Position numbers and translations under genes: made by a program
The notes under the pieces: model-generated
What the model saw: the letters and a program-made list of their open reading frames with translations, nothing else
What the model was told of the DNA's origin: nothing
The model's database searches: none
DNA from: a virus
DNA: 64,000 bases
Strand: one strand, 5' to 3'
IMG/VR virus record: IMGVR_UViG_3300021400_001206
Coordinates: 11,782-75,781 of that record
Shown here: positions 1 through 56,310 of the stretch, in pieces
Layout: each line of letters opens with the position of its first letter
Numbering within the stretch: position 1 is the stretch's first letter

Positions 1-814
1 ACATAAAGTATATGTTATTTGTTTGGGAGACCCATTCCAGTTGCCACCTATTGATAAAGATGAAGATAATCATCTATTAGATAATCCTCATATCTTTCTT
101 GATGAAATTATGAGACAGGAAGAAGATTCTGAAATTATTCAGCTTACTATGAAAATTAGAAATCAAGAATCAATTGATTATTTTAATGGTAATGAAGTAA
201 AAATTATTCCTTATTCAGATTTAAATACTGGAGTGCTACAATGGGGAGACCAAGTTCTAACTGCAACAAATGCAAAGCGACGAGCAATTAATAACCAGAT
301 GCGCGCATTACAAGGAAGAACTGGAGAGCCTGTTGATGGAGATAAAATTATATGTCTCCGCAATTACTGGGATGATTCAAGTTTAAATGGTGATGCTCTA
401 ATTAATGGAACTATTGGTATTCTTCAAAATAGTTTTCGTACTTGGAGAGAAATTCCCAGATTTATACAAAGTGATATAAGAAAATTTGATGTTTTAGTTG
501 GCGATTTAGTTGTACCAGAAACTAATGATGTTTATGAAATGACAGAAATGGATCGTCAAATGATTATTACTGGAGAAAAATGTTGTGATTGGCGACTATC
601 TTATAAATTAGGTAAGTTGCGTTCTAAATATGGAGAAATTGTTCCTAAAGAGTTTACATACGCTTATGCTATTACAACTCACAAAAGTCAAGGTAGTGAA
701 TGGGATAAGGTAGTTGTTCTTGAAGAAAAGTTTCCGTTTGATAAAAATGAACATGCTCGATGGCTATACACAGCTTGCACGAGAGCCAGTGAAAAATTAG
801 TTTTAGTGAGGTAA
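1..814 (+). CDS. RecD/Dda-like superfamily 1 helicase, C-terminal part (gene continues off the left edge; frame is open to position 2)
   Basis: VYVICLGDPFQLPPI, TTHKSQGSEWDKVVV and TACTRASEKLVLV motifs are typical of RecD-like helicase C-terminal domains. The ORF is open upstream of the annotated 23 start. Confidence 0.75.
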   Translation, partial: HKVYVICLGDPFQLPPIDKDEDNHLLDNPHIFLDEIMRQEEDSEIIQLTMKIRNQESIDYFNGNEVKIIPYSDLNTGVLQWGDQVLTATNAKRRAINNQMRALQGRTGEPVDGDKIICLRNYWDDSSLNGDALINGTIGILQNSFRTWREIPRFIQSDIRKFDVLVGDLVVPETNDVYEMTEMDRQMIITGEKCCDWRLSYKLGKLRSKYGEIVPKEFTYAYAITTHKSQGSEWDKVVVLEEKFPFDKNEHARWLYTACTRASEKLVLVR

Positions 815-37589: not shown

Positions 37590-37660
37590 GGCTAACGTGA
37601 ACAGCCGTTCGGGCACCGAAAAATTATACCACACAGCGATGCAGTTTGTCAAGACTAAAT
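37590..37660 (-). ncRNA. promoter-plus-GC-hairpin element (copy 1): minus-strand TTGACA-N18-TGgTATAAT firing into hairpin GTGCCCGAACGGCTGTTCACG
   Basis: Reverse complement of ATTATACCACA-N10-TTTGTCAA gives consensus -10/-35. Transcript would begin in the GC hairpin and end at the upstream bidirectional terminator. Confidence 0.4.
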
Positions 37661-40057: not shown

Positions 40058-40092
40058 TAAAAATGGGGGTTGACAAACCTCAACCCCCATGA
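40058..40092 (+). promoter_or_regulatory. terminator-promoter module (GGGGGTTGACAAACCTCAACCCCC + ATGATATAAT) driving an ORF-less unit
   Basis: Consensus hexamers with 17-nt spacer. Confidence 0.6.
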
Positions 40093-40107
40093 TATAATAA
40101 AATCATC

Positions 40108-40200
40108 AAAAGAAAGGAAGCAACAAAACAGAATAGGGTGGGCGGACGAGCCAAGCGCCGGTTGCTCATCTGAAATGCAGAAAGCTTCTAAAAAAATAAA
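40108..40200 (+). ncRNA. ORF-less cassette: candidate small RNA A (homolog of 45425-45510)
   Basis: GGGTGGGCGGACGAGCCAAGCGCCGGTTGCTCATCTGAAATGCAGAAAGCTTC aligns with GGTGGTCGGCAGAGCCTAGCGCCTATCGGCTATCTGAACAACGGAAAGTCACTTC, with a compensatory GAGC/GCTC versus AGCC/GGCT pairing. Longest ORF is only 18 codons. Confidence 0.4.
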
Positions 40201-40645: not shown

Positions 40646-40689
40646 AATTAAAAAAGGGGTTGACAAACCTCAACCCCTTTGATATAATA

Positions 40690-40850
40690 AAGACATAAGG
40701 TAAGGGCAGTCAGAGAGGCTGACAGCAACACAAGGTTCGATTCCTTCCCCTACTTCGAAGGGTGTTTTAAAGCAAGTTCACCCAGACGAGGCGAGTAAGT
40801 TCTAAACTAAGTCGAAAATCTCCCACTCATATCAAAAACTTCTAAAAAAT
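40690..40850 (+). ncRNA. ORF-less cassette with tRNA-like T-arm (CAAGGTTCGATTCCTTC) and hairpin GTCAGagaggCTGAC; candidate structured RNA
   Basis: GGTTCGATTCC is the canonical tRNA T-arm sequence. A full cloverleaf could not be built by eye, so it is called tRNA-like only. Confidence 0.3.
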
Positions 40851-41111
40851 AAAAATAAAAGGTTGACAAACTTCAACCTATCTGATATAATAAAATCATC
40901 AAGAGAGAGGAACATAAAAAATGAGAGACCCGCCGTAAAAATCAACAAACTAAAGAAATGCGCCAGAGCCTGGGGACATTAGGGCGCGATGAATGCAGGC
41001 ACGGTGAGCGGACAAGTTCCCATCCCTCACCAAAAAAAAATAAAAAAAATAGTTGACAAATTCAGCTCGGTTTGATATAATAGAATCATCAAGAGAGAGG
41101 AGAACAAAAAC

Positions 41112-41304: not shown

Positions 41305-41365
41305 TTTCGGCGCGCCGTGGGCGCACGGGCTTCGCCCGTTCAACCATTATAGCATATCCTCAGGG
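41305..41365 (-). ncRNA. promoter-plus-GC-hairpin element (copy 4)
   Basis: Reverse complement TTGACAAAACCCTGAGGATATGCTATAAT then GGCGCGCC-containing hairpin region. Confidence 0.4.
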
Positions 41366-41700
41366 TTTTGTCAATAGGCAAATTGCACAAAGATTTAGCA
41401 TAAAAATTTCCCATTTTTGTGCAATTTGCCTATTGACAAATCAGTGCAGATGTGCTTCTCGTCAAACTGCACAAAAATAACGCCCAAAACCACCTCATTT
41501 TTGTGCAATATTTCTACTTGACTTTTTTGAAGTTGTGCAAACTACACAAAAGAAGCGCTCTATTATTGTGCAGTTTGCACAAAAAAATTTTTTGTCAATA
41601 GTAAAAATAAAAAATAGCAAAATATACAAAATTTTTATGATCCTTTTGTGCAAAATGTAAAACCGCATAAAAATTAAAAAAATCATTTGACAAGTCTCTA
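41340..41700. promoter_or_regulatory. noncoding hub dense in TGTGCA/TGCACA dyads, with a perfect 25-bp inverted repeat TTTGTCAATAGGCAAATTGCACAAA ... TTTGTGCAATTTGCCTATTGACAAA
   Basis: At least 8 copies of TTGTGCAA/TTGCACAA within ~360 bp, including TGTGCAgttTGCACA. No ORF. Confidence 0.6.
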
Positions 41701-43844: not shown

Positions 43845-43914
43845 AACAAAAGGGGTTGACAAACCTCAACCCCTTTGATATAATAAATACAGAATAAAGG
43901 AAAGGAAAGAAAAA

Positions 43915-44951: not shown

Positions 44952-45224
44952 ATGAAGATTTGTATTAATACTTGTTTTGGCGGTTTTGGTCTTTCAGATG
45001 AAGCTTTGCGGATGCTTGGATTTAAAACTCGTTATCCACTAATTTCTCGAACAGACCCTCGTCTAATCGAGGTAGTTAGCACTCTCGGAGAAGCCGCAAA
45101 CGGTTGTTTCGCTCGGCTTGCTATTGTAAGTATTCCGGATGAAGCTACTGATTGGGAGATTGACGAGTATGATGGCTCTGAGGGCATCATCTACGTTCTT
45201 GACGGAAAACTTCATCATATTTAA
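44952..45224 (+). CDS. cassette protein (90 aa)
   Basis: Promoter module GGGGGTTGACAACCTCGACCCC + TATGATATAAT. Confidence 0.55.
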   Translation: MKICINTCFGGFGLSDEALRMLGFKTRYPLISRTDPRLIEVVSTLGEAANGCFARLAIVSIPDEATDWEIDEYDGSEGIIYVLDGKLHHI

Positions 45225-45239
45225 AAACAGGGGGTAATA

Positions 45240-45330
45240 CCCTCTGTTTTTTTTCGTTCGGCGCGCCAACACTCGGGTTGGCGCGAAAAATCCATTATAC
45301 CACACCCTGAGTGGTTTTGTCAAGCATTTT
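45240..45330 (-). ncRNA. promoter-plus-GC-hairpin element (copy 7); predicted RNA GGAUUUUUCGCGCCAACCCGAGUGUUGGCGCGCCGAACG-A8-CAGAGGGUAUUACCCCCUG-U5
   Basis: Reverse complement GCTTGACAAAACCACTCAGGGTGTGGTATAATGG. Two hairpins, the second being the upstream gene's terminator read from the other side. Confidence 0.45.
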
Positions 45331-45424
45331 TTCGAAAAAAATTGCACAAAAAAATATCCCAAAATTAGTACAAAATTCCGACTTGTATTTTCTAAAAAAT
45401 TTTAGTATAATTATATCAAGATAA

Positions 45425-45510
45425 AGAAAGGACAACAAAATTAAGTAAGGTGGTCGGCAGAGCCTAGCGCCTATCGGCTATCTGAACAACGGAAAGTCAC
45501 TTCAAAAAAT
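45425..45510 (+). ncRNA. ORF-less cassette: candidate small RNA B (homolog of 40108-40200)
   Basis: See 40108-40200 alignment. Promoter TTGTATtttctaaaaaattttagTATAAT. Confidence 0.4.
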
Positions 45511-45932
45511 CTTAAAAAAACTGTTGACAAATAAAAAATCTTATGGTATAATAAATACATAAGATAAAGAAAGGACAGTGACACTCCCATGAGAGACCCG
45601 CCGACATAAGCCCTTTGAATTGAGCCTTTGGATGGGCATAAGGCTTAGAAAAAAAATAAAAAAAACTGTTGACAAAATAAAAAAGATATGATATAATAAA
45701 TACAGAAGTTAAGCAAAGGAAAGGACATTAAGTGTATGGGAGTCAGGCAGAAAGCCCCATGTAGGTGGATGTAAGGGGCTAACAAAAATACTATCAGCCA
45801 CGTGGTATAAGGCGCCAAATCCACGAAAACAAAATAAAAAAAAATAAAAAAACTGTTGACAAAATAAAAAAAATAAGTTATAATAAATACATAGTAAAGA
45901 AAACAAAACATAAAAAGAAAGAGGTGTCTAGT

Positions 45933-46289
45933 ATGACAAAACGTGAGATGTTCGCAGAAATTCGTAAGGTAGTTATTGACAACGCTGAGATGGTAGCTTT
46001 CATTGACAAGCAGATTGAGCTTCTTGACAATAGAAAGGCGTCCCCAAAGAAGCCGACTAAAACTCAGCTTGAGAACGAGGGCTTCAAGGCTGACATTATC
46101 GCTTCCCTCATTGAGGTTGGCAAGCCTGTAACAATTAAGGAGCTGTGTGACGCTTGTCCGTCCATTGTAAAGCTGTCCAATCAGAGAATTACTCACCTGC
46201 TCATGGCTCTCCAGTCTGAGAACAAGGTCGAGAGAACTCAGGTGAAGAAAGTTCCGTACTTCGCCATTGCTCAGACTGAGACTGAGTAA
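45933..46289 (+). CDS. cassette protein (118 aa), winged-helix-like; paralog of 53762-54103
   Basis: MTKREMFAEIRKVVIDNAEMVAFIDKQIELLDNRKASPKK..., ~55% identical to MTKREMFVAIREVVVDNADMVAFIDKEIALLDKKRNAPKK.... RBS AAGAAAGAGGTG. Confidence 0.55.
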   Translation: MTKREMFAEIRKVVIDNAEMVAFIDKQIELLDNRKASPKKPTKTQLENEGFKADIIASLIEVGKPVTIKELCDACPSIVKLSNQRITHLLMALQSENKVERTQVKKVPYFAIAQTETE

Positions 46290-46406
46290 CACAAAGGGTT
46301 TTGCGGTTATCCCTAAAAACCGCTCCTTATGGGGATTGTACCGTTGCGGAAAGTAAGACATACAGTGTATGCTGAATCGTGGTTCAACTCCACGTATCCC
46401 CACTGA

Positions 46407-46481
46407 GGGGGTGTAGCTCAGTAGGTTTAGAGCACACGACTTTTAATCGTGGTGTCGAGGGTTCGAATCCCTTCACCCCCA
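46407..46481 (+). tRNA. tRNA-Lys (anticodon UUU; loop CUUUUAA)
   Basis: Cloverleaf: acceptor GGGGGTG/CACCCCC, D-arm GCTC-AGTAGGTTTA-GAGC, anticodon stem CACGA/TCGTG, T-arm GAGGG-TTCGAAT-CCCTT, discriminator A. No encoded CCA. Confidence 0.7.
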
Positions 46482-46696
46482 CTCAGAATCTAATATTCGT
46501 TTTCCTTTCTTTTGGTGCGGGGGTTGTCGTAGATGGCAACCCCCTTTTGGCGTCGCGCGATGGGTCGCCGTGCGACGCCATTGTCAATATGTAATGTTGC
46601 ACAAATTTTTGATCCGCATTTTGTATAAAATTACTTATTGACTTTTTTCCTAATTTTTTGTATAATTATATCATCAACAGAAAGGAAATAAACGAT

Positions 46697-47467: not shown

Positions 47468-47703
47468 AATAAGGGGTTGACAACTCCAACCCCTTATGAT
47501 ATACTAATAACATAAGCGGTTCCACTGGATGCAAGTCGGAAGACCCGCAAATCTGCGGAGCGTCACCAGACGAAGATGATTAAATGTCGGATAAAAAGGA
47601 TGCAGCGCATCCCGACAGCCGCCTAAATAAAAAAATAAGGGGTTGACAACTCCAGCCCTTTATGATATACTAATATCATCAAGAAAAGAAAGGAAATAAA
47701 AAA

Positions 47704-53345: not shown

Positions 53346-53761
53346 TCACTCTAAAAATCCCATAATTTGTGCATAATCCCATATTGATTTTTTAAAAAAT
53401 TTTTAGTATAATAGTTATACAAGGTAAGGGAAAAACACCTTGAAGGGTCAAGAAAAAAAATAAAAAAAGTTCTTGACAAATAAAAAAACCTATGTTATAA
53501 TAAATACATAAGGTAAGGAAAGTCAAAGAAGTCAACCACTAAAAATTTATTTTATCTCGGTGACAATGCAAACAACCCCTAACTAAACTTAGGATAAAAC
53601 AACCCCAGAGCGCAAAAATCCGTTATAATAAGAGGCTGGTTACGGATAAAAAGAGATAAAAAAAGTTAAAAAAGTTCTTGACAAACAAAAGACCTTATGT
53701 TATAATAATAACATAGAAAACAAACAAACAACAATTTTTACAAAAGAAAGAGGTGTCTAGT

Positions 53762-54103
53762 ATGACAAAGAGAGAAATGTTCGTAGCAATCCGTGAAGTA
53801 GTTGTTGACAATGCAGATATGGTCGCTTTTATTGACAAGGAAATTGCACTTCTTGATAAGAAGAGAAATGCTCCTAAGAAGCTGACCGACACCCAGCTTG
53901 AGAATGAGCGTTGCAAGGCTGACATTATTGCCTATCTGATTGAGGTAGACCAGCCGAAAAACATCTCTGAAATTCAGGCGGATGTTGCTTCTGTCGCTAA
54001 GTTCTCAAATCAGAGAATTACACACATCCTGTCTGCGCTTGTCGCTGATAGTAAGGTAGTAAAGACTTACGTTAAGAAGAGACCGTATTTCTCAATCGCA
54101 TAA
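53762..54103 (+). CDS. cassette winged-helix-like protein (113 aa), paralog of 45933-46289
   Basis: See paralog. Upstream are two ORF-less promoter units (53480-53750). Confidence 0.55.
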   Translation: MTKREMFVAIREVVVDNADMVAFIDKEIALLDKKRNAPKKLTDTQLENERCKADIIAYLIEVDQPKNISEIQADVASVAKFSNQRITHILSALVADSKVVKTYVKKRPYFSIA

Positions 54104-54608: not shown

Positions 54609-54689
54609 ATAATCTGACATTTTAAGTCAGTTTTTCGTCAAAATGACGAAAAACTGACTATTTTTTTGTTAAAAATTACTACTTGACAA

Positions 54690-54750
54690 CCATATTCTGA
54701 TATGATATAATGGTTGGCCCGTCGCGGAGCGCCGGGCGCCGCAATTTGTC
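54690..54750 (+). ncRNA. promoter-plus-GC-hairpin element, plus-oriented copy (TTGACAaccatattctgatatgaTATAAT then GGCCCGTCGCGGAGCGCCGGGCGCCGC)
   Basis: Same architecture as the minus-strand copies but in direct orientation. Confidence 0.4.
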
Positions 54751-54862
54751 AAGATGTAATATTTAACAAATTTTTCACCGCACTTTTGTATAAAATGCCA
54801 GGTTGACATTTTTCCTAAAATTTATTATAATTTATACATAAGATAAAGAAAGGAAGTAAACA

Positions 54863-56014: not shown

Positions 56015-56125
56015 TTGACAAACTACATTATTATGTGGTATAATCGTCGGCCCGCTGGCCTCCAGCCGAGGGCCGCTCCGCCACTCCAGACCCCTTAGGC
56101 GACTTTTTTCCAGAACATGGCCGAT
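56015..56125 (+). ncRNA. promoter-plus-GC-hairpin element, plus-oriented copy with CCCCTTAGGC repeats and U-tract terminator
   Basis: CTTGACAaactacattattatgtgGTATAAT then GTCGGCCCGCTGGCCTCCAGCCGAGGGCCGCTCCGCC...CCCCTTAGGCGACTTTTTT. Confidence 0.45.
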
Positions 56126-56310
56126 TGGTTTTGCCGCCCCATTTTTCCCAAAATTCGACCCCCTTAGGCCGAATCCCGCTAGAACAATTCTATTTGAAAT
56201 TTTAAAAAATTTTTGTTATAATTTAAAAAAACACTTTTTTAAAACCACTTGATTTTTTTAAAAATTTTTGATATAATATAATTACAATAATAAAGGAGAG
56301 AAAAAAATAT

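Follow-up and report, generated by a model that had tools for sequence, protein, structure and literature searches.

The window, by which we mean the whole 64-kb stretch of viral DNA analysed here, is AT-rich (28-39% GC) and encodes a phage DNA polymerase, NrdD, a portal protein and a virion protein. The portal protein shows 39% identity to that of the gut Phage Phass-1 and ~30% identity to those of Enterococcus Herelleviridae. To judge by the sequence, the source is a Herelleviridae-like myovirus, and megablast of 8 kb of the window found no close GenBank phage. Perfect promoters of the form TTGACA-N15-19-TATAAT occur 51 times in the window, compared to 0.26 expected by chance, and from ~37 to 56 kb the plus strand carries an array of tiny genes, each with its own promoter and a strong RBS. 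The array resembles the host-takeover module of phage SPO1, a set of small, strongly expressed early genes, in that the genes are very small and early and possess strong sigma-A-type promoters and RBSs (PMC6873191). Their portal proteins and DNA polymerases make the two phages distant kin. Descriptions of the SPO1 module present it as protein-coding, whereas several cassettes of the window array deliver RNAs or mini-ORFs of 5-10 codons.

An earlier note on this DNA had described two promoter units that lack an ORF. Both are present, and their extents and promoters are as follows.

40106 to 40198, plus strand: RNA copy 1, whole conserved unit (covariance-model match, 92.2 bits)
45418 to 45510, plus strand: RNA copy 2, whole conserved unit (covariance-model match, 88.8 bits)
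40070 to 40098, plus strand: promoter of copy 1, TTGACA-17-TATAAT with TG extension, perfect consensus
45383 to 45411, plus strand: promoter of copy 2, TTGTAT-17-TATAAT (-35 at 45383-45388, -10 at 45406-45411)

The two units share a 23-nt core, GGTGGNCGGNNGAGCCNAGCGCC, which is found at exactly two sites in the 64-kb window, 40137 and 45449, both on the plus strand; the count remains two when three mismatches are allowed and is zero in 100 shuffles. The 93-nt copies align with no internal gaps and lie 5.3 kb apart, each of them single and with no tandem structure. The 3' word that they share is ATCTGAA and not TCATCTGAA, as had been proposed. Comparative analysis shows the two copies to be paralogs of one family of predicted structured RNAs.

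The earlier note had assigned a consensus promoter to both cassettes. This holds for copy 1, whose promoter is perfect and whose -35 sits within a hairpin that reads as a minus-strand terminator, but not for copy 2, where the -10 is perfect and the -35 (TTGTAT) is poor, and which is outside our list of consensus promoters; relatives of copy 2 have TTGACT at the -35 position. Just upstream of the copy 2 promoter is a divergent regulatory region containing TTGCACAA-type words and a minus-strand promoter at 45294-45323. Words of the TTGCACAAA type are palindromes.

Convincing plus-strand terminators are found in the window array only at 45223-45251 and ~46517-46548, which places each RNA copy near the start of a plus-strand operon: copy 1 is the second cassette of an operon of ~39.83-45.25 kb and copy 2 is the first element of an operon of 45.4-46.55 kb. 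Almost every plus-strand promoter of the array overlaps a minus-strand terminator, and the small minus-strand units of the window have canonical terminators. Plus-strand terminators are also absent from the protein cassettes of the array; consequently, the missing terminator of the RNA unit is not evidence of a cis-acting role.

The RNA family and its fold

Pattern scans of IMG/VR, a metagenome collection and GTDB genomes detected ~55 distinct homologs. A covariance model built on 15 homologous sequences and applied to the loci collected produced 85 matches, 67 of them distinct, with E values of 4e-7 to 2e-19, so that the pair does have homologs, the lack of which the earlier note had named as an argument against an RNA. 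Most of the sample identifiers of the homologs belong to what we take to be rumen or gut projects, and the family is described here as one from rumen and gut Clostridia phages.

The comparison of family members shows an RNA with the predicted shape of an irregular rod, which consists of a closing helix (P1), internal loops, a short helix (P1.1) and a terminal hairpin (P2). P1 pairs the purine-rich, Shine-Dalgarno-like leader with the 3' tail and is followed by a conserved purine-rich internal loop (AACA(A/C)AA on the 5' side, CAGA(A/U)A on the 3' side). P1.1 is a helix of 2 bp adjoining a conserved A(A/G)UA / GAA internal loop, and P2 is a 14-bp hairpin whose tip consists of a G-C pair, a bulged A, a G-C pair, a C-G pair and a 5-nt loop ending in C. 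In the two copies of the window, the elements of the fold are located as follows.

40116 to 40121, plus strand: copy 1, 5' strand of P1 (GGAAGC), pairing with 40184-40189 (GCUUCU)
40129 to 40135, plus strand: copy 1, 5' strand of P1.1 (CA, pairing with UG at 40176-40177), then G and AAUA
40136 to 40171, plus strand: copy 1, P2 hairpin of 36 nt with a 10-bp G-U-rich lower stem
40148 to 40159, plus strand: copy 1, apical motif GAGCCAAGCGCC, within P2
40172 to 40189, plus strand: copy 1, 3' strand, with the GAA loop, A, UG of P1.1, the purine loop CAGAAA and GCUUCU of P1
45426 to 45433 with 45496 to 45503, plus strand: copy 2, P1, from the fold
45441 to 45442 (UU) with 45488 to 45489 (AA), plus strand: copy 2, P1.1, from the fold
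45444 to 45447 (AGUA) and 45484 to 45486 (GAA), plus strand: copy 2, internal loop, from the fold
45448 to 45483, plus strand: copy 2, P2, with apical motif GAGCCUAGCGCC at 45460-45471

In copy 1 the 5' strand of P1 overlaps the Shine-Dalgarno-like purine tract of the standard leader, AAUA is the 5' half of the A(A/G)UA / GAA loop, and the lower stem of P2 is followed by C-G, G-C, a bulged A, G-C, C-G and the pentaloop CAAGC. In copy 1 the helix supported by the comparison of the two copies joins GGGUGGGCG(G) to (U)UGCUCAUCU, and in copy 2 it joins AGGUGGUCGG to UCGGCUAUCU; at two of its pairs both partners differ between the copies (G-C to U-G, C-G to A-U), four pairs differ in one partner through G-U, and none is broken. 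The earlier note had named another helix, GAGC/GCTC in one copy and AGCC/GGCT in the other, which is not the conserved one, since GAGCC is near-invariant while its proposed partner region varies freely in relatives. The size of ~60 nt given there is also too small: the conserved unit measures ~85-93 nt and extends from the transcription start to the A-rich upstream tract of the next promoter.

Across the family, the whole fold is 88.4% paired, compared to 70.1% in column shuffles (0 of 500 reach the observed value) and 30-45% with slid partners. In P2 the paired fraction reaches 98%, and double compensatory changes are seen at 9 of the 14 pairs. P1.1 occurs with four Watson-Crick pair types (UA 40, CG 13, GC 6, AU 4), and the three inner pairs of P1 covary strongly as well (CG 55 / UA 6; GC 51 / AU 12; GC 28 / AU 22). 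RNAalifold, a check that had been recommended for the pair and its homologs, independently predicted P1, P1.1 and P2, that is, the same fold. The fold is specific to RNA of the plus strand, because its numerous G-U pairs turn into C-A mismatches when the opposite strand is read.

The search patterns themselves account for part of the near-invariance of GAGCCNAGCGCC, ANUA and YUGAA. Ascertainment was checked on matches found by the model only (L225:3375, L255:2453, L223:9195 and L227:6360) and on loci that were fetched via a neighbouring protein (L278 and L296-L300). These unascertained matches retain AGUA/AAUA, UGAA, the bulged nucleotide and the two G-C/C-G pairs; their pentaloop is variable (UAAAC, UCCGC, UUCGC, AUGAC, CUCGC), and the "conserved apical loop" is therefore partly an ascertainment artefact. 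Several members are short variants without P1 and the internal loops (L161, L223:9195, L224, L227:6360, L299 and L300), which makes P2 with its flanks the minimal unit. Two copies in the same orientation, ~3.3-5.5 kb apart, are also found in L225, L255, L223, L227 and L266, a recurrence that we count as a probable sign of selection on both paralogs.

The unit might alternatively be something other than an RNA gene, namely a micro-peptide cassette or a DNA element such as an operator, an origin or a single-stranded DNA hairpin. GTG triplets with a frame of 11 codons in copy 1 and of 5 codons in copy 2 could be read in favour of a peptide, and neighbouring cassettes do encode peptides of 5-10 residues. 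However, the GTG is not kept across the family, the L038 group having GUA, and the Shine-Dalgarno-like tract is masked by pairing in P1 and missing from L002. Stops close two frames in all 67 distinct members and the third frame in 48 of them, the longest closed ORF having a median length of 6 codons across the family. The absence of a plausible ORF from either unit, proposed in the earlier note, is thus borne out, and a micro-peptide gene was rejected because the family has no conserved open frame. Compensatory changes that proceed via G-U intermediates, on one strand only, indicate pairing of RNA, and we consider this alternative extremely improbable. Taken with the homologs, the covariation and the RNAalifold prediction, the missing reading frame agrees with the proposal that sequence and pairing are conserved without coding capacity, and covariation, lack of an ORF and the -10 upstream likewise support a putative ncRNA family expressed like the protein cassettes.

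None of the 4227 families of Rfam 15 matches the units at its gathering score, tRNA-Lys being the only family to reach threshold in the window, and a search of both regions at E up to 10 gave only weak matches at the level expected by chance. Rfam searches of 20 relatives found no recurrent match at the unit. No homolog was detected in GenBank phages by blastn of each unit or by megablast of 8 kb, and the covariance model has no match in the first 50 kb of Phass-1, the nearest GenBank relative. A scan of viral sequence with the loose pattern CGGNNGAGCCNAGCGCC gave almost only chance matches in high-GC phages, and the apical motif, searched as a text string in the literature, only irrelevant ones. 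As judged from its absence from Rfam 15 and from GenBank phages, the RNA family is new; the general kind, a promoter-driven structured phage RNA, is already known. The family is similar to the orphan RNA motifs of comparative genomics in its covarying structure, its conserved loop nucleotides and its occurrence mostly on uncultivated phage contigs, and differs from orphan motifs of the Rfam type in matching none of the Rfam 15 families.

Promoters, neighbours and chromosomal copies

The genomic context was counted in 70 distinct members with enough flanking sequence. The -10 hexamer ends 1-18 nt (mostly 6-8) before the unit, with none detectable in 5 of the 70, and a T5 run within ~60 nt downstream is found in one member only. 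Across the family, transcription from the unit's own sigma-A-type promoter starts where the unit begins, and no terminator is present. The -35 of the next promoter lies within ~25 nt of the unit end in 50 members, mostly at 9-24 nt, and the intervening A-rich tract resembles the UP element of that promoter; the RNA is consequently the only unique product of the promoter of the unit. In ~15 distant members the unit is located directly in a 5' UTR, its end being separated from an RBS and ATG by 0-25 nt. The proteins encoded directly after the unit are mutually unrelated. The unit is usually the first or second element past a regulatory region, and in L002, L196, L197, L223, L225, L299 and L300 it directly follows a divergent one.

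The main alternative, a serious one although on balance we consider it somewhat unlikely, is that the RNA is a cis-acting 5' leader of early transcripts, which acts on the downstream operon rather than as a free RNA. Such a leader could be a processing site of the RNase III/Y type (like T7 R0.3 or the SP82 early-RNA sites), a 5' stabiliser, or a put/nut-like modifier of the polymerase. The start of the unit at the transcription start, the lack of a terminator, the location of the window copies near the start of terminator-bounded operons, the adjacent divergent regulatory regions and the members with an immediate RBS and ATG all favour such a role. In lambda and HK022, nutL/nutR and putL/putR are present as two copies per genome at two operon starts, which the paired copies of the family recall. 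Similar to the T7 and SP82 RNase III sites, lambda nut and HK022 put, the RNA of the window lies close to a promoter, in sense orientation, where early operons begin; further shared features are the presence of two paralogs in one genome, an irregular hairpin and conserved internal loops. P1, P1.1 and P2 stack to ~24 bp in full-length members, which may be enough for RNase III with its requirement of about two helical turns.

Other observations disagree with a leader. Although the promoter-proximal sense position fits put and nut sites, plus-strand terminators are found only at the operon ends, so that there are almost none inside the operons for an antiterminator to read through, and most downstream cassettes have their own promoter 9-24 nt further on, which would leave most downstream transcripts without the element. 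The RNA is a single nested rod and has neither boxA/boxB nor the two-hairpin architecture of put; no boxA-like word is conserved in the family. The 14-bp hairpin of the short variants is probably too short for RNase III, and conservation of the loops goes well beyond what an RNase III site normally needs. The covariance model has no match in the SPO1 terminal redundancy, which indicates no homology to sites of SPO1-type phages. Unlike the known processing and antitermination elements, the family also includes self-contained copies in bacterial chromosomes, with their own terminator and different neighbours.

The chromosomal copies are contained in a ~420-bp block that is ~93% identical among a Lachnospiraceae MAG (L271), a Blautia MAG (L275) and a rumen contig (L216), both MAGs being Lachnospiraceae. 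The block consists, in this order, of a promoter, the full P1-P1.1-P2 fold, a hairpin whose sequence suggests that it masks a Shine-Dalgarno sequence, an ORF of 33 codons and a strong intrinsic terminator. Its chromosomal neighbours are ordinary genes that differ between the two MAGs: asnB plus a Mac-type acetyltransferase next to one copy, LOR, DUF1349 and ZIP next to the other. The word GGGGACGTATYTTTTTGACTCATTTT can be read in the sequences on either side of the block, and these flanking words suggest a small inserted element. As the block demonstrates, the fold can form a transcription unit of its own that does not depend on the genes around it.

Several neighbours of the RNA in the window are of interest with respect to its function.

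45924 to 46289, plus strand: 121-aa protein of the "MTK(K/R)EMFAEIR" family with a C-terminal winged helix, the gene most often linked to the RNA
45589 to 45609, plus strand: mini-ORF M-R-D-P-P-T-stop, next cassette after copy 2 (promoter 45524-45552)
40921 to 40938, plus strand: mini-ORF M-R-D-P-P-stop in the copy 1 operon (promoter 40863-40891)
46407 to 46482, plus strand: tRNA-Lys(UUU), at the end of the copy 2 operon

The winged-helix gene is linked at 50 of 83 RNA sites, at a median of 454 nt downstream. Its family comprises 573 unnamed homologs of 115-121 aa, and the protein matches nothing in Pfam or PHROGs. Among six lineages that were anchored on the protein and not selected on the RNA (P0016, P0030, P0009, P0039, P0037 and P0024), all six have the RNA within ~1.3 kb upstream of the gene, and one carries a second copy of the gene without the RNA. 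An AlphaFold model of the 121-aa protein (pLDDT 88) shows a winged helix of a generic kind, preceded by an N-terminal helical arm, and its best PDB matches are ArsR/SmtB and Z-alpha at E of only ~0.01. These matches are uninformative as to a role of the protein as RNA-binding partner; it may simply be a DNA-binding regulator.

The mini-ORF at 45589 is syntenic with copy 2 in many relatives and may be functionally linked to the RNA. MRDPP mini-ORFs were found as 33 distinct instances in 28 loci, and the M-R-D-P-P peptide is preserved by synonymous codon changes (AGA/AGG/CGA, GAC/GAT, CCG/CCC); the mini-ORF looks like a minigene for ribosome stalling or peptidyl-tRNA drop-off. A terminator-like hairpin at ~46517-46548 follows the tRNA-Lys(UUU) gene, and tRNA or tRNA-like genes are present in the same operon for both window copies. 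Pairing of the RNA with the MRDPP mRNA was considered and rejected, as was a pseudoknot between the apical loop and the 3' tail; on inspection by hand, the candidate pairings of one copy are not kept in relatives.

Candidate roles of the RNA

The explanation that we tentatively favour is that the RNA is itself the product of the cassette and acts in trans by binding a conserved cellular partner. The RNA would be the payload of its cassette, parallel to the tiny host-takeover proteins of the neighbouring cassettes, and after transcription or processing it would offer its conserved loops to a host partner. The A(A/G)UA / GAA loop and the apical stem with the bulged A would be the binding surfaces. 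In its sequence signature this loop resembles the S-turn of sarcin-ricin or loop-E motifs, or a UAA/GAN module. The partner would most likely be a protein or complex of the RNA or translation machinery, titrated or redirected early in infection; the link to translation is made through synteny only, by way of the MRDPP mini-ORF and the tRNA or tRNA-like genes in both operons. We count in favour of a payload that unrelated proteins follow the unit and that the chromosomal block is self-contained. Against action in trans we count that the window's small minus-strand units have canonical terminators and that the short variants are reduced to P2 with its flanks. Since the unit has no intrinsic terminator, processing would be needed to yield a discrete small RNA, and the promoter-proximal position and the ~15 members directly in a 5' UTR fit a cis-acting leader equally well.

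A more specific variant, which we regard as unlikely, joins these elements into a translation-attack module. The RNA would dock via its S-turn-like loop on the ribosome or an associated factor, the MRDPP minigenes would trap ribosomes or peptidyl-tRNA-Pro by means of Asp-Pro-Pro, often directly before the stop, in strongly expressed mini-ORFs, and the phage would provide its own tRNA-Lys and tRNA-like RNAs. T4 RNAs C and D are small stable RNAs of unknown function that are co-transcribed with phage tRNAs, and copy 2 is likewise in an operon with tRNA-Lys and a tRNA-like element. However, the RNA has no relation to T4 RNAs C and D in sequence or structure, and copy 1 is not beside a canonical tRNA. 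Mimicry of ribosomal RNA (the GTPase-associated centre or the sarcin-ricin loop) was rejected, as the covariance model has no match on the E. coli rrn operon.

The S-turn-like loop also calls to mind T-box Stem I, which has a long irregular stem, an AGUA / GAA S-turn-like loop and a structured tip, and is found in Firmicutes. In contrast to Stem I, the RNA of the window has no double T-loop tip and no Rfam T-box match. Decoding of the T-box kind was rejected for want of a free specifier codon, because the triplet after GAA is paired and P1.1 covaries.

The promoter-driven nature of the small RNA and its location in the early region of a lytic-type phage would also be expected of a mimic that disarms host defence, either an RNA anti-CRISPR decoy or a pseudo-antitoxin for an abortive-infection toxin. 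Such RNAs are similarly small, promoter-driven and encoded in early or anti-defence regions of phages, and Racrs, phage-encoded repeat mimics that serve as decoys, are a known precedent (PMC10651486). A related contig contains a bona fide Rfam abiF RNA (L230:113-149, 46.2 bits compared to a gathering score of 37), from which it follows that this phage group carries defence-associated RNA motifs. The AGUA...stem...(U/C)UGAAA flanks bear a possible superficial likeness to Cas13d-type repeats of Ruminococcus and Eubacterium. However, no Rfam CRISPR-DR, ToxI-type or abiF model matches the units at E up to 10, and each genome or metagenome locus has one pattern match, never an array; no cognate arrays were found. 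Although the unit is a stand-alone, promoter-driven phage RNA, as Racrs are, it does not mimic a repeat of ~28-37 nt as represented by the Rfam CRISPR-DR models, being 85-93 nt long, with P2 alone taking up 36 nt, and it is unlike catalogued repeats and antitoxins. The chromosomal copies adjoin asnB, the acetyltransferase, LOR, DUF1349 and ZIP, which are not defence genes. We consider a defence mimic rather improbable. Two specific identities were rejected: a type III (ToxI-like) antitoxin RNA, because the copies are single, 5.3 kb apart and without tandem repeats, and an abiF RNA, because the abiF match of L230 is ~1.8 kb upstream of the unit of that locus.

Covarying helices enclose approximately 20 unpaired nucleotides that hardly vary, a pattern typical of a specific tertiary fold, and in the chromosomal block the unit is followed by the putative Shine-Dalgarno-sequestering hairpin, a small ORF and a terminator. 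Both observations could be explained by a ligand-binding aptamer, either a riboswitch or a platform-less "sponge", or by a new self-cleaving ribozyme. However, an expression platform is not conserved, the genes downstream are not related to one another, no model of a known riboswitch or ribozyme matches, and the internal loops are wholly absent from the short variants; we consider an aptamer or ribozyme very improbable. A riboswitch proper was rejected because the phage copies lack a terminator or anti-Shine-Dalgarno platform and their downstream genes are unrelated, and an HDV-like or hairpin-ribozyme fold because there is no Rfam support and no room for the P2/P3 arrangement.

The takeover regions of large Firmicute phages have been studied as sets of small proteins, and some of the cassettes described here deliver structured RNAs and mini-ORFs. 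The covariation support equals that of curated Rfam families, and the family constitutes a new RNA class for Rfam. The chromosomal copies show the fold in a bacterial setting, outside the phage arrays. If the translation-attack module were true, it would represent a form of host takeover by an RNA and a minigene that has not been described for any phage. With P1, P1.1 and P2 as a defined structural model for experiments, the RNA is a testable candidate for RNA-based takeover or counter-defence in phages of rumen and gut Clostridia.

Mini-ORFs and cassettes without an open reading frame

Mini-ORFs beginning with M-R-D-P-P are found at two positions in the plus-strand array of very small early genes, and also in the related loci L038, L161, L189, L205, L224, L225, L278, L296 and others.

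40921–40938, plus strand: M-R-D-P-P mini-ORF
45589–45609, plus strand: M-R-D-P-P mini-ORF

There are 33 distinct instances spread over 28 loci, and the peptide consists of M-R-D-P-P followed by 0–19 further residues. An SD-like tract lies 5' of the mini-ORF in 33/33 instances, and 28 of the 33 have their own consensus promoter. The codons vary synonymously (AGA/AGG/CGA, GAC/GAT, CCG/CCC) and the peptide remains unchanged; therefore, the mini-ORF sequence is coding. With Asp-Pro-Pro close to a stop, the M-R-D-P-P mini-ORF looks like a minigene that causes ribosome stalling or peptidyl-tRNA drop-off, of the lambda bar type.

Other promoter-driven units contain no ORF, and one further element is tRNA-like.

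45703–45850, plus strand: third ORF-less cassette, 3' of the M-R-D-P-P unit
47477–47640, 54683–54800 and 56015–56300, plus strand: promoter cassettes with no ORF behind the ribosome-binding site
40698–40850, plus strand: ORF-less cassette of the copy-1 operon (promoter 40660–40688)
46331–46402, plus strand: tRNA-like element directly 5' of tRNA-Lys(UUU)

For the cassette at 45703–45850, relatives (L163, L175, L197, L226, L230, L242 and L278:1380–1500) have in common the nucleotide word AUG(A/G)GA(N)UUAGGAU(G/U)UAAGC, followed on its 3' side by a conserved structured tail. Read as a mini-ORF, the word gives M-R-L-R-M, M-(M)-R-F-R-I or M-G-V-R-I, and these peptides recall arrest leaders of the MRLR type. 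The unit at 47506–47625 is GC-rich and looks structured.

The acceptor stem of the element at 46331–46402 is GGGGAUU/..AUCCCCA, and its T arm, which is canonical, reads CGUGG-UUCAACU-CCACG; a normal D arm and anticodon arm are absent, and neither ARAGORN nor Rfam gives a match for it. Within the cassette at 40698–40850, a T-arm-like AAGGUUCGAUUCCUU is located at 40732–40746, preceded by a 5-bp hairpin; the cassette is the second RNA of this tRNA-like kind and belongs to the operon of copy 1.

Minus-strand units and divergent regulatory regions

Eleven units of opposite orientation are located inside the plus-strand gene array.

Promoters at 37623, 38152, 39729, 41346, 42890, 44217, 45294, 48710, 50177, 51803 and 53296, minus strand: units of the array

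The promoter of each of the eleven fits the consensus, and its -10 element is TG-extended (TGTGGTATAAT in six, TATG(C/T)TATAAT and similar in the remainder); each unit contains a stretch of about 45 nt made up of GC-rich hairpins (e.g., UGGUUCCGCGGGCAGGGCCCGCGCGCCC...). An intrinsic terminator closes about nine of them, the units at 41346 and 53296 being without a clear one. These units have the look of a second small-RNA family, one that is oriented antisense.

Between 38.4 and 47.5 kb a minus-strand terminator is fused to nearly every plus-strand promoter, such that a G+C-rich hairpin has the -35 box TTGACAA in its loop and arm and is followed by a T-run on the minus strand. Of the 27 terminator-like sites in the window (8.3 expected in total), 21 are on the minus strand.

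40063–40090, 40653–40680 and 43849–43876: examples of plus-strand promoters with a fused minus-strand terminator
41351–41456 and about 39800, 45340, 46600 and 53360: divergent regulatory regions with TTGCACAAA / TTTGTGCAA words

Two TTGACA boxes lie within the region at 41351–41456, which forms a long and nearly perfect inverted repeat. The divergent regulatory regions are probably operator sites for a phage regulator.

Winged-helix paralogs, related phages and a chromosomal block

Two paralogs of a winged-helix family (113–121 aa) are encoded in the window.

45924–46289, plus strand: first winged-helix paralog
53762–54103, plus strand: second winged-helix paralog

The family has 573 homologs; it carries no Pfam domain, and no names are attached to it. 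The second paralog is preceded by ORF-less cassettes (53473–53677) from which the RNA family is absent, and the arrangement in the related locus L278 is the same.

By portal protein, Phage Phass-1 (OQ749652.1) is the closest relative in GenBank; it is placed in the 'Caudoviricetes code 15 clade', in which TAG is recoded. The large genes of the window are open throughout in code 11, and therefore this recoding is not obviously shared. In the related phage contig L230, the Rfam abiF RNA motif is found at the 3' end of a gene (113–149, plus strand; 46.2 bits versus a gathering score of 37), as a possible RNA decoy for an AbiF abortive-infection system.

The RNA fold, a rod-shaped structured RNA of ~90 nt, also occurs in a block of about 420 bp with ~93% identity among three sequences.

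L271:4180–4600: RNA-fold block, Lachnospiraceae MAG
L275:3985–4420, minus strand: RNA-fold block, Blautia MAG
L216:150–590: RNA-fold block, rumen contig

Along with the RNA fold, the block carries a 33-codon ORF (MYENRIDFNTVRQYGKDN...), and it has a terminator. Its chromosomal insertion sites differ between the two Lachnospiraceae MAGs, one of which is the Blautia MAG, and GGGGACGTATYTTTTTGACTCATTTT words can be read in the sequences on both sides of it. The block may be a miniature mobile element.
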